Below, one piece after another: positions 7,825 through 7,872 of a DNA stretch of 9,473 bases; the stretch's first letter is position 1, and every line of letters begins with the position of its first letter. The stretch is from a virus. Taxonomy: Duplodnaviria > Heunggongvirae > Uroviricota > Caudoviricetes. The notes under the pieces were generated by a model. It saw only the letters and a list, made by a program, of their open reading frames with translations. It was not told the DNA's origin and made no database searches. Where the stretch lies: positions 1 through 9,473 of IMG/VR virus record IMGVR_UViG_2703718801_000021. One strand, written 5' to 3'. A program made the translations under genes and the position numbers.

Positions 7825-7872
7825 CTGGCTTTTCAGCCACGTAGTCGAGTGTTCGACGTTGTTTAAAGAGCC
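7825..7872 (-). promoter_or_regulatory. nutL-like N-utilisation site: boxA, spacer hairpin, boxB-like GAAA-loop hairpin
   Basis: Minus-strand reading: GGCTCTTTAAACAAC (boxA-like, compare CGCTCTTTAACAA consensus), then GTCGAacacTCGAC, then TACG, then tGGCTgaaaAGCCa. The same layout recurs after cro on the plus strand. Confidence 0.6.

Follow-up and report, generated by a model that had tools for sequence, protein, structure and literature searches.

Probable nutL and nutR sites with a spacer hairpin in the early region of an EHEC lambdoid prophage

N-dependent antitermination controls delayed-early expression in lambdoid phages, and so in the Shiga-toxin phages it is an early step towards lytic growth and toxin release. 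At a nut site the linear boxA is bound by NusB-NusE and boxB is bound by the arginine-rich motif of N (PMC8632103); in the lambda mechanism NusA contacts the spacer and boxB, and RNA polymerase is made termination-resistant (PMC8632103, PMC2724277, PMC3177189). NusB-NusE recognise 8 nt of boxA (PMC3177189), NusA binds only the spacer of the lambda nut site (PMC2724277), and recruitment of NusA has been ascribed to the protruding fourth base of lambda N-boxB (PMC3597692). In the rrn system boxB and boxA stand in the opposite order, boxB can be dispensed with and there is no N protein (PMC8632103).

The closest described relatives of the sites reported here are those of H-19B and HK97, in which nutL and nutR alike have the architecture (boxA)-ACAAY-spacer hairpin-UACG-boxB. 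The H-19B nutR site was read as two hairpins from RNase T1 and RNase H footprints, and in those experiments N with NusA/NusG protected the spacer and boxB, while Rho alone protected the spacer (PMC3526286). The spacer hairpin is described in that paper, which cites Neely and Friedman 2000 (Mol Microbiol 38:1074), and the H-19B nut sites were also used in PMC4499122. The H-19B sequences are ...AUACAAC GAUUCG-AAUA-UGAAUC UACG GCGCU-GACAA-AGCGC at nutL and ...CACAAU GGAC-AUUC-GUCC UACG UCGCU-GACAA-AGCGA at nutR. The spacers of P22 and of HK620 (phage 21-like) are linear, with neither a hairpin nor UACG: they read UUCGAUGAU and CAAUCUGAA in P22, and are 13-15 nt long at the annotated nut sites of HK620. 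The corresponding boxB hairpins are GCGCU-GACAA-AGCGC in P22 and CCCGC-CGAAAU-GCGGG in HK620.

The window, by which we mean the whole 9,473 nt stretch of DNA that was analysed (IMG/VR record IMGVR_UViG_2703718801_000021), is the early region of a lambdoid prophage of the EHEC type. Its minus strand carries, in order of transcription, the PL promoter, nutL, a long leader hairpin and N, followed by a block of minus-strand genes between N and the integrase gene; its plus strand carries PR, cro, nutR and cII. The features are as follows.

75-1361, minus strand: integrase gene.
7455-7727, minus strand: N gene, 90 aa plus stop, from translation (Pfam PF25694 N_peptide, E 8e-32).
7753-7800, minus strand: long imperfect hairpin in the N leader (inverted repeat of 16 nt, 88% complementary).
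7839-7826, minus strand: nutL boxB hairpin, UGGCU-GAAA-AGCCA, 5-bp stem and GNRA tetraloop.
7843-7840, minus strand: nutL UACG linker between the spacer hairpin and boxB.
7857-7844, minus strand: nutL spacer hairpin, GUCGA-ACAC-UCGAC, 5-bp stem and 4-nt loop, from folding.
7872-7864, minus strand: nutL boxA, GGCUCUUUA / GGCTCTTTA, near the boxA consensus.
7872-7858, minus strand: nutL boxA with ACAAC, GGCUCUUUAAACAAC; ACAAC itself at 7862-7858.
7918-7946, minus strand: PL-like sigma-70 promoter from a promoter scan (-35 TTGACT, 17-nt spacer, -10 TACTAT).
8073-8732, minus strand: LexA-type cI gene.
8788-8817, plus strand: PR-like promoter for cro-nutR-cII from a promoter scan (TTTGCA, 18-nt spacer, TATTAT).
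8844-9059, plus strand: cro-like helix-turn-helix gene (Pfam HTH_3, E 4e-12).
9070-9077, plus strand: nutR boxA, CGCTCTTT (or CGCUCUUUG at 9070-9078), near consensus.
9070-9085, plus strand: nutR boxA with ACAAC, CGCUCUUUGUAACAAC; ACAAC itself at 9081-9085.
9086-9097, plus strand: nutR spacer hairpin, GGAC-AUUC-GUCC, 4-bp stem.
9098-9101, plus strand: nutR UACG linker.
9102-9115, plus strand: nutR boxB hairpin, UCGCU-GAAA-AGCGA, 5-bp stem and GAAA loop.
9201-9473, plus strand: cII gene, 3' of nutR and running off the window end (Pfam Phage_CII, E 3.7e-34).

The PL-like promoter is predicted to drive the leftward nutL-N transcript and the PR-like promoter the rightward cro-nutR-cII transcript. 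An operator-like inverted repeat is common to the two promoter regions (7917-7936 with 8799-8818, 90% complementary). The nutL element spans 7872-7826 on the minus strand, approximately 45 nt 3' of the PL-like promoter and 98 nt 5' of the N gene, and nutR spans 9070-9115 on the plus strand, its boxA starting 10 nt past the end of cro. The long leader hairpin lies between nutL and the N ribosome-binding site, outside nut proper, and the fold of the whole N leader has a z score of -4.5.

Both elements have the parts of a nut site in the places where these are found, nutL between PL and N and nutR between cro and cII: a boxA (consensus CGCUCUUUA) lies 5' of boxB, and boxB is a short hairpin with a purine-rich, GNRA-like loop, here a 5-bp stem closed by GAAA at either site. 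The layout and sequences given by the original prediction for 7825-7872 and for the copy after cro were accurate to the base, and the sequence confirms that the nutR copy uses different but still complementary stems (GGAC/GUCC and UCGCU/AGCGA). The window contains exactly two occurrences of the pattern ACAAC-N12-14-TACGTNGCTGAAAAGCNA, one on each strand and at mirror nut positions, where none is expected by chance (0/200 shuffles), and the nutL/nutR pair is the top inverted repeat of the searched stretch 7000-9473. A scan of the whole window with Rfam 15, at E up to 10, returned no significant match at the nut sites; the only overlap was a chance-level Trp_leader on the strand opposite nutR (18.1 bits, E 8.9, gathering score 41). 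The nut element carries no annotation in the phage records that were inspected.

Comparison with lambda shows the same positions (after PL and after cro) and the same order of boxA, spacer and boxB. The GAAA-loop hairpin had been likened to lambda boxB, and this resemblance extends to the 5-bp stem, the U-A closure and the GNRA-type G-A-A-A of the loop; it does not extend to loop length, since the window loop is a GAAA of 4 nt and that of lambda a 5-nt GAAAA pentaloop with a protruding fourth base. The prediction had also set the spacer hairpin apart from lambda, which is borne out by the lambda nutR read in one of the collected loci (L067), CGCUCUUA-CACAUUCCA-GCCCUGAAAAAGGGC, with its 9-nt linear spacer and no hairpin. 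L067 is a natural hybrid in which an N of the window kind is combined with this lambda nutR. The architecture that seemed unfamiliar is not new, however, as it is the one already described for H-19B.

The spacer hairpin and linker of H-19B nutR (GGACAUUCGUCC-UACG) are identical to those of the window nutR, as is the HK97 nutR spacer hairpin GGAC-AUUC-GUCC, and the H-19B boxB stem UCGCU/AGCGA and downstream tR1 leader match those of the window fully or almost fully. The differences lie elsewhere. The boxB loop is a GAAA tetraloop in the window and a GACAA pentaloop in H-19B, HK97 and P22, which at nutR amounts to a 1-nt difference; the nutL spacer stem is GUCGA/UCGAC in the window and GAUUCG/UGAAUC in H-19B; and both window copies of boxA are near consensus, whereas H-19B nutR has CGCUAUUUU and H-19B nutL lacks GCUCUUU, a motif absent from nutL throughout the group with an N of 120-127 aa. 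The degenerate boxA of the H-19B nut sites is in line with the 'reduced requirement for host factors' named in the title of Neely and Friedman 2000. From its near-consensus boxA copies, the window sub-type would be expected to use NusB/NusE, and the sequence hints at the reverse of the independence from boxA, NusB and S10 that goes with the H-19B type. With P22 and HK620 the window shares the boxA form at the start of nutL (GCUCUUUAAC), a homologous PL leader upstream of boxA, and the last 24 residues of N, which are 75-96% identical. The window nutL sequence GCUCUUUAAACAA differs by one extra A from the boxA of E. coli rrn, GCUCUUUAACAA.

The 90 aa N protein carries the arginine-rich motif SRRRARRA at residues 13-20, and the nutL boxB is its presumed binding site. 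Window N is 40% identical to H-19B N (E 1e-23) and belongs to the same Pfam family; the two have in common the N-terminus M[ST]R[RK]T.F.G and the C-terminus, the latter also matching that of P22 N. The H-19B protein has 127 aa, approximately 29 central residues of which are missing from window N, and the arginine-rich motif of window N is 7 aa shorter. The window motif SRRRARRANLQSQ resembles the arginine-rich motif of lambda N, TRRRERRAEKQAQW; past this motif no homology between lambda N and window N was detectable. A search of PDB sequences with window N found no structure of a relative.

Among the variants seen, the N proteins with the short motif (...RRRxRRAxLQ...) always accompany a tetraloop boxB, and those with a motif 7 aa longer (...RRRERLKAKALANGVLA...) accompany a GACAA boxB, with the exception of the SPN9CC nutL, whose boxB is divergent. 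The tetraloop, which is GAAA at both window sites and GCAA in some relatives, thus marks a sub-type, and the window site is the tetraloop, short-motif sub-type of the known H-19B-type nut sites. A literature search on nut sites of the short-N Stx-phage group found nothing specific. Because the tetraloop is without the protruding fourth base of lambda, the contact with NusA may differ from that in lambda.

Taken together, we consider it probable, at roughly 0.85, that an EHEC lambdoid prophage has its nutL site at 7872-7826 on the minus strand and its nutR site at 9070-9115 on the plus strand, and that both act as RNA through the N/Nus mechanism. They are identified as nut sites by their position, by boxA, by the boxB hairpin and by the strict linkage to an arginine-rich N, alongside the observed anatomy, gene context, conservation and base-pair covariation. 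By homology to lambda and H-19B, which is also the ground for ascribing to them the binding of N, NusA and NusB/E and a role for the hairpin, the arginine-rich N-terminus of the 90 aa N would bind the GNRA tetraloop hairpin of boxB, host NusB/NusE would bind the near-consensus boxA, and NusA would bind the spacer. The complex would stay on RNA polymerase and allow it to pass terminators, giving expression of the leftward recombination genes and of the rightward cII and replication genes. The general picture of N action is left unchanged by these sites.

To extend the covariation test, relatives were collected in three ways. The close relatives, 80 IMG/VR loci found by their N proteins, have an N that is 98-100% identical; in these both stems are invariant and only the loop of the nutL spacer hairpin varies (ACAC, ACUC, CUC, AUC, GCAC), which is the pattern expected of a stem under selection. 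Their high identity and invariant stems made this set of no use for covariation. Distant relatives were therefore sought with an alignment of six N proteins (from the window, Shigella phage 75/02, H-19B, HK97, Salmonella SI8 and SPN9CC), which was scanned against one genome per species and gave loci in Citrobacter, Atlantibacter, Enterobacter, Kluyvera, Klebsiella, Tatumella and others; two more IMG/VR scans with N proteins added further loci. The third way was by the DNA pattern ACAAY-N11-18-TACG-NN-GCUGAAAAGC, in which neither the spacer hairpin nor the two outer boxB pairs are constrained. In all, the covariation set holds 236 related loci, about 2 Mb, and spans no fewer than eight genera of enterobacteria (Escherichia, Salmonella, Klebsiella, Citrobacter, Enterobacter, Kluyvera, Atlantibacter and Tatumella).

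All 184 N genes of the clade for which upstream DNA was available (184/184) have a single site of the form ACAAC-(11-18 nt)-UACG-boxB, lying 100-340 nt upstream. These nutL sites represent 30 variants, and ACAAC stands 5' of the hairpin in every nutL variant found. For the rightward strand, 162 loci reach 1.5 kb or further upstream of N. An ACAAY...TACG match is present in 145 of them, chance matches in coding DNA being counted in; under a stricter filter that requires the 5' half of boxB, a nutR of the H-19B type is present in 137 of the 162. The 25 loci that fail this filter comprise at least seven with anchor variants (for example ATAAC-GGAC and CCAAC-GGAC), one with a lambda-type nutR, six of the Klebsiella type with none in range, and several without a candidate in the available DNA. 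The Klebsiella-type loci (L094-L096, L099, L116 and L203) possess nutL, and no such nutR was found within their 1.6-4.6 kb of upstream DNA. The UACG linker is present in 45 of 45 spacer-hairpin variants, in an extraction anchored on boxB and not on TACG. ACAAC and UACG flank the spacer hairpin at nutL and at nutR of the window. Among nutR sites the 5' flank shows slight variation (ATAAC, AAAAC, CCAAC, AAAAT), and ACAAY was dropped as an invariant flank after the anchor was relaxed, AAY alone being general.

Covariation was assessed in a MAFFT alignment of 41 distinct variants. Stem positions are paired in 94.1% of cases, against 67.3% after shuffling, and none of 500 shuffles of the 41 variants reached the observed value; positions changed on both sides number 110, against 32.7 expected by shuffling. 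Compensatory changes occur in eight of the ten pairs, namely in four of the five boxB pairs and in all four variable pairs of the spacer helix. When the partners were slid by 1-3 columns as a control, pairing fell to 20-48%, and both helices were also predicted, independently, by RNAalifold. Two causes account for the unpaired cases: nutR stems of 4 bp have no fifth pair, and four boxB rows with longer loops are out of register (three GACAA pentaloops and the heptaloop of the SPN9CC nutL). The argument from compensatory change, originally made from the two copies in the window, thus holds across the 41 variants, and non-compensatory changes in the stems were not seen among the relatives.

At least eight spacer stems occur, all perfectly complementary and all opening with G and closing with C: GUCGA/UCGAC, GGUGA/UCACC, GAUUCA/UGAAUC (also GAUUCG, and GAUUCC/GGAAUC), GAAGA/UCUUC, GAUUGC/GCAAUC, GGAC/GUCC, GGCC/GGCC and GGCA/UGCC. 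The first pair of the spacer helix is G-C in 41 of 41 variants. For boxB there are likewise at least eight paired stems (UGGCU, AGGCU, CGGCU, GCGCU, UCGCU, UAGCU, CAGCU and UGGCC), and the U-A closing pair covaries to C-G in Tatumella (locus L104). G-U wobbles are found in GAUUCG/UGAAUC, UGGCU/GGCCA and UCGCU/GGCGA, and each of these would be a C-A mismatch on the opposite strand; since G-U pairs work on one strand only, the transcribed strand is the one that pairs. The 11 chance ACAAY...TACG variants in coding DNA serve as a negative control: they are not followed by a boxB, and by inspection their spacers are not visibly self-complementary.

These data bear on whether the dyads could instead work as DNA, bound by a dimeric protein, or serve as small terminators or as sites of RNase processing, unconnected with N utilisation as RNA. 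Both hairpins are of course palindromic in DNA, but a DNA site would conserve its sequence, whereas here the stems change and the complementarity stays, with G-U pairs that function on the transcribed strand only. In a consensus scan the strand complementary to the nutL spacer hairpin came up as terminator-like (plus strand, 7844-7857); this 'terminator' has a stem of 5 bp, lies on the strand that is not transcribed from PL, and owes its T-run to the complement of boxA. Although a large hairpin suited to RNase III lies 3' of nutL, the sites themselves are strictly linked to N and occupy nut positions, and we regard this explanation as highly improbable. A second alternative accepts the RNA and treats nutL as a structural switch, in which boxA (GGCUCUUU) is base-paired to the boxB loop and 3' arm (GAAAAGCC). 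Formation of boxB would then require that boxA be occupied by NusB/NusE, or vice versa, and the two halves of the site would be coupled. It arises from the folding of the window sites, which had been proposed as a check. At nutR the minimum-energy fold is the two hairpins as predicted; for nutL alone the spacer hairpin is kept, and boxB is exchanged for a pairing of boxA with the 3' half of boxB, at -15.1 against -12.8 kcal/mol, an advantage of 2.3 kcal/mol over the two-hairpin fold. In addition, the first boxA base matches the boxB stem at both window sites (GGCU...AGCC at nutL, CGCU...AGCG at nutR), and the title of Neely and Friedman 2000 mentions alternative NUT RNA structures. Folding of this kind is, however, limited to the window-type nutL and one other variant (L221), with both hairpins exactly present in the minimum-energy fold of 71 of 83 variants, and the first-base match is lost in the relatives 75/02, L088, L089 and L104 (A-C, C-U or C-C). 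Local hairpins are also favoured by co-transcriptional folding, and most of the complementarity follows from the combination of a consensus boxA (GCUCUUU) with a boxB of the form GCU-GAAA-AGC. The long-range boxA:boxB pairing was rejected as a conserved, general switch, and we consider a switch at the window nutL to be improbable.

With the sites read as nutL and nutR RNA, what the spacer hairpin contributes can be considered. When the hairpin is closed, the RNA left unpaired between boxA and boxB would be (A)ACAAC plus UACG, roughly 9-12 nt and so similar to the 9-nt linear spacer of lambda, and the closed helix would juxtapose the single-stranded (A)AY and UACG. The hairpin would in this way preserve the geometry of the spacer while accommodating extra sequence, and the (A)AY/UACG platform would be what NusA sees (and Rho, at tR1). 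We give about even odds to a hairpin that serves both geometry and contact. It is also possible, and we hold this more tentatively, that the hairpin is purely negative, an insert kept self-folded so that it neither mispairs with boxA or boxB nor lengthens the spacer; selection would then keep the pairing and not the presence of the hairpin. This would suit stems that covary freely and loops that vary from 3 to 6 nt, with the closing G-C pair as the only conserved feature inside the hairpin, and it would equally suit an unpaired spacer of about the lambda length. Moreover, one-arm changes to the H-19B dyad reportedly inactivated NUT and compensating changes restored it, and deletion of the dyad is said to have had little effect (in the 2000 study by Neely and Friedman); a tolerated deletion would speak against positive recognition of the hairpin. 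Yet if the hairpin were dispensable its natural deletion should be common, and it is kept in 184/184 nutL sites across eight genera. The G-C first pair (41/41) hints at a constraint past mere pairing, and the footprint of N with NusA/NusG covers the H-19B spacer.

The opposite reading, that the spacer hairpin is a positive recognition element of a distinct N-antitermination sub-type, seems to us unlikely. The G-C-closed helix together with (A)AY/UACG might then form a bipartite platform for the KH domains of NusA, or the helix might occupy the double-stranded-RNA site that lies next to boxA on NusB-NusE (PMC3177189). Were this so, the combination of a GNRA-tetraloop boxB with a short, lambda-like motif would show that N recruits NusA without the protruding base, and the 1-nt loop indel paired with the 7 aa change in the arginine-rich motif would be a natural switch of N specificity on one nut scaffold. 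The idea that the spacer hairpin is a second boxB was also considered, as many Salmonella and Klebsiella nutL sites have GNRA loops in this position (GUGA, GAGA, GCGA, GUAA); it was rejected, the window loops being ACAC and AUUC.

For annotation, the rule (boxA)-ACAAY-hairpin-UACG-boxB, 100-340 nt upstream of N, can be applied to this clade of N genes. The alignment is a ready covariation data set for an element with no matching Rfam model, and the natural series of arginine-rich motifs with their boxB loops (GAAA/GCAA versus GACAA) bears on peptide-RNA specificity.

The element is common in EHEC prophages. Bases 7700-9200 of the window are 100% identical to prophages of E. coli O157:H7 strain 611 and of O111:H- strains, and at least a partial match to this stretch is present in 1,497 of 5,426 complete E. 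coli genomes. Over bases 7400-9473, many Stx1- and Stx2-converting phages (1717, 2851, Stx2 II and 'Stx1 converting phage') are approximately 94% identical to the window.

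Comparison of the N proteins in alignment A2 (the window, Shigella phage 75/02, H-19B, HK97 and Salmonella phages SI8 and SPN9CC) with the nut variants collected showed that the arginine-rich motif of N (columns 10-35) and the boxB loop co-vary. Short N motifs are found with a GNRA tetraloop boxB (GAAA or GCAA), and the motifs that are 7 aa longer (H-19B, HK97 and SPN9CC) are found with the pentaloop GACAA. When the nutR boxB of the window is set against that of H-19B, one inserted C is the sole difference.

A natural hybrid was identified among the 236 related loci (L-numbers):

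3877-4146 of L067 (IMGVR_UViG_2531839234_000006): N gene, with a lambda-type nutR ∼ 1.5 kb upstream, on the opposite strand

In this prophage PL, nutL and N of the window type are joined to lambda cro, lambda nutR and lambda cII. The lambda nutR, GCCCUGAAAAAGGGC, is without a spacer hairpin. The arginine-rich motif of lambda N is TRRRERRAEKQAQW, and the L067 N protein carries a similar motif, SRRRARRANLQSQ. Either the L067 N protein reads the lambda boxB too, or rightward antitermination is impossible in this prophage.

The spacer hairpins differ in their loops. The nutL sites of the GAUUCA/UGAAUC class carry mostly GNRA tetraloops (GUGA, GAGA, GCGA and GUAA; L085, L090, L091, L094, L202 and others), which resemble boxB loops, whereas the window loops, ACAC in nutL and AUUC in nutR, are not GNRA. 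In Klebsiella-type prophage loci L094-L096, L099, L116 and L203 a nutL of the spacer-hairpin type lies upstream of a 120-aa N, and a search of 1.6-4.6 kb of upstream DNA revealed no nutR of that type; their nutR may be more distant or different in form. An unusual boxB was observed in Salmonella phage SPN9CC:

near 4363-4400 of L086 (SPN9CC): nutL with boxB GCUC-CGUCAAC-GAGC (4-bp stem, 7-nt loop)

UACG and the spacer hairpin are normal in this nutL, and the SPN9CC nutR boxB is UCGCU-GACAA-GGCGA. The boxB of this nutL may have diverged, or it may be in decay.

Further elements were located in the window:

7738-7812, minus strand: long imperfect hairpin in the N leader, 16-nt arms (7800-7785 and 7768-7753), 88% complementary
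9446-9473, minus strand: strong intrinsic-terminator-like hairpin, 12 pairs, with a T-run, antisense to cII in the 3' part of that gene
8021-8042, minus strand: GC-rich hairpin with T-runs, directly past the cI stop codon and ahead of PL
7917-7936 and 8799-8818: 20-nt inverted repeat, 90% complementary, common to the PL and PR regions (AAAGTACA-ATCGTA...)

The leader hairpin follows nutL and precedes the ribosome-binding site of N, a position that matches that of the lambda RNase III-sensitive N-leader structure, a modulator of N translation. The whole PL leader gave a folding z of -4.5, and long leaders are present at the same place in H-19B, HK97, P22 and the Salmonella relatives. The hairpin antisense to cII corresponds in position to the lambda oop antisense RNA terminator. 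The hairpin past cI is presumably the terminator of the immunity transcript, and the HK620 record has an annotated tIMM at the equivalent place. The two copies of the inverted repeat are presumably operator sequences, OL and OR, of the window immunity type.
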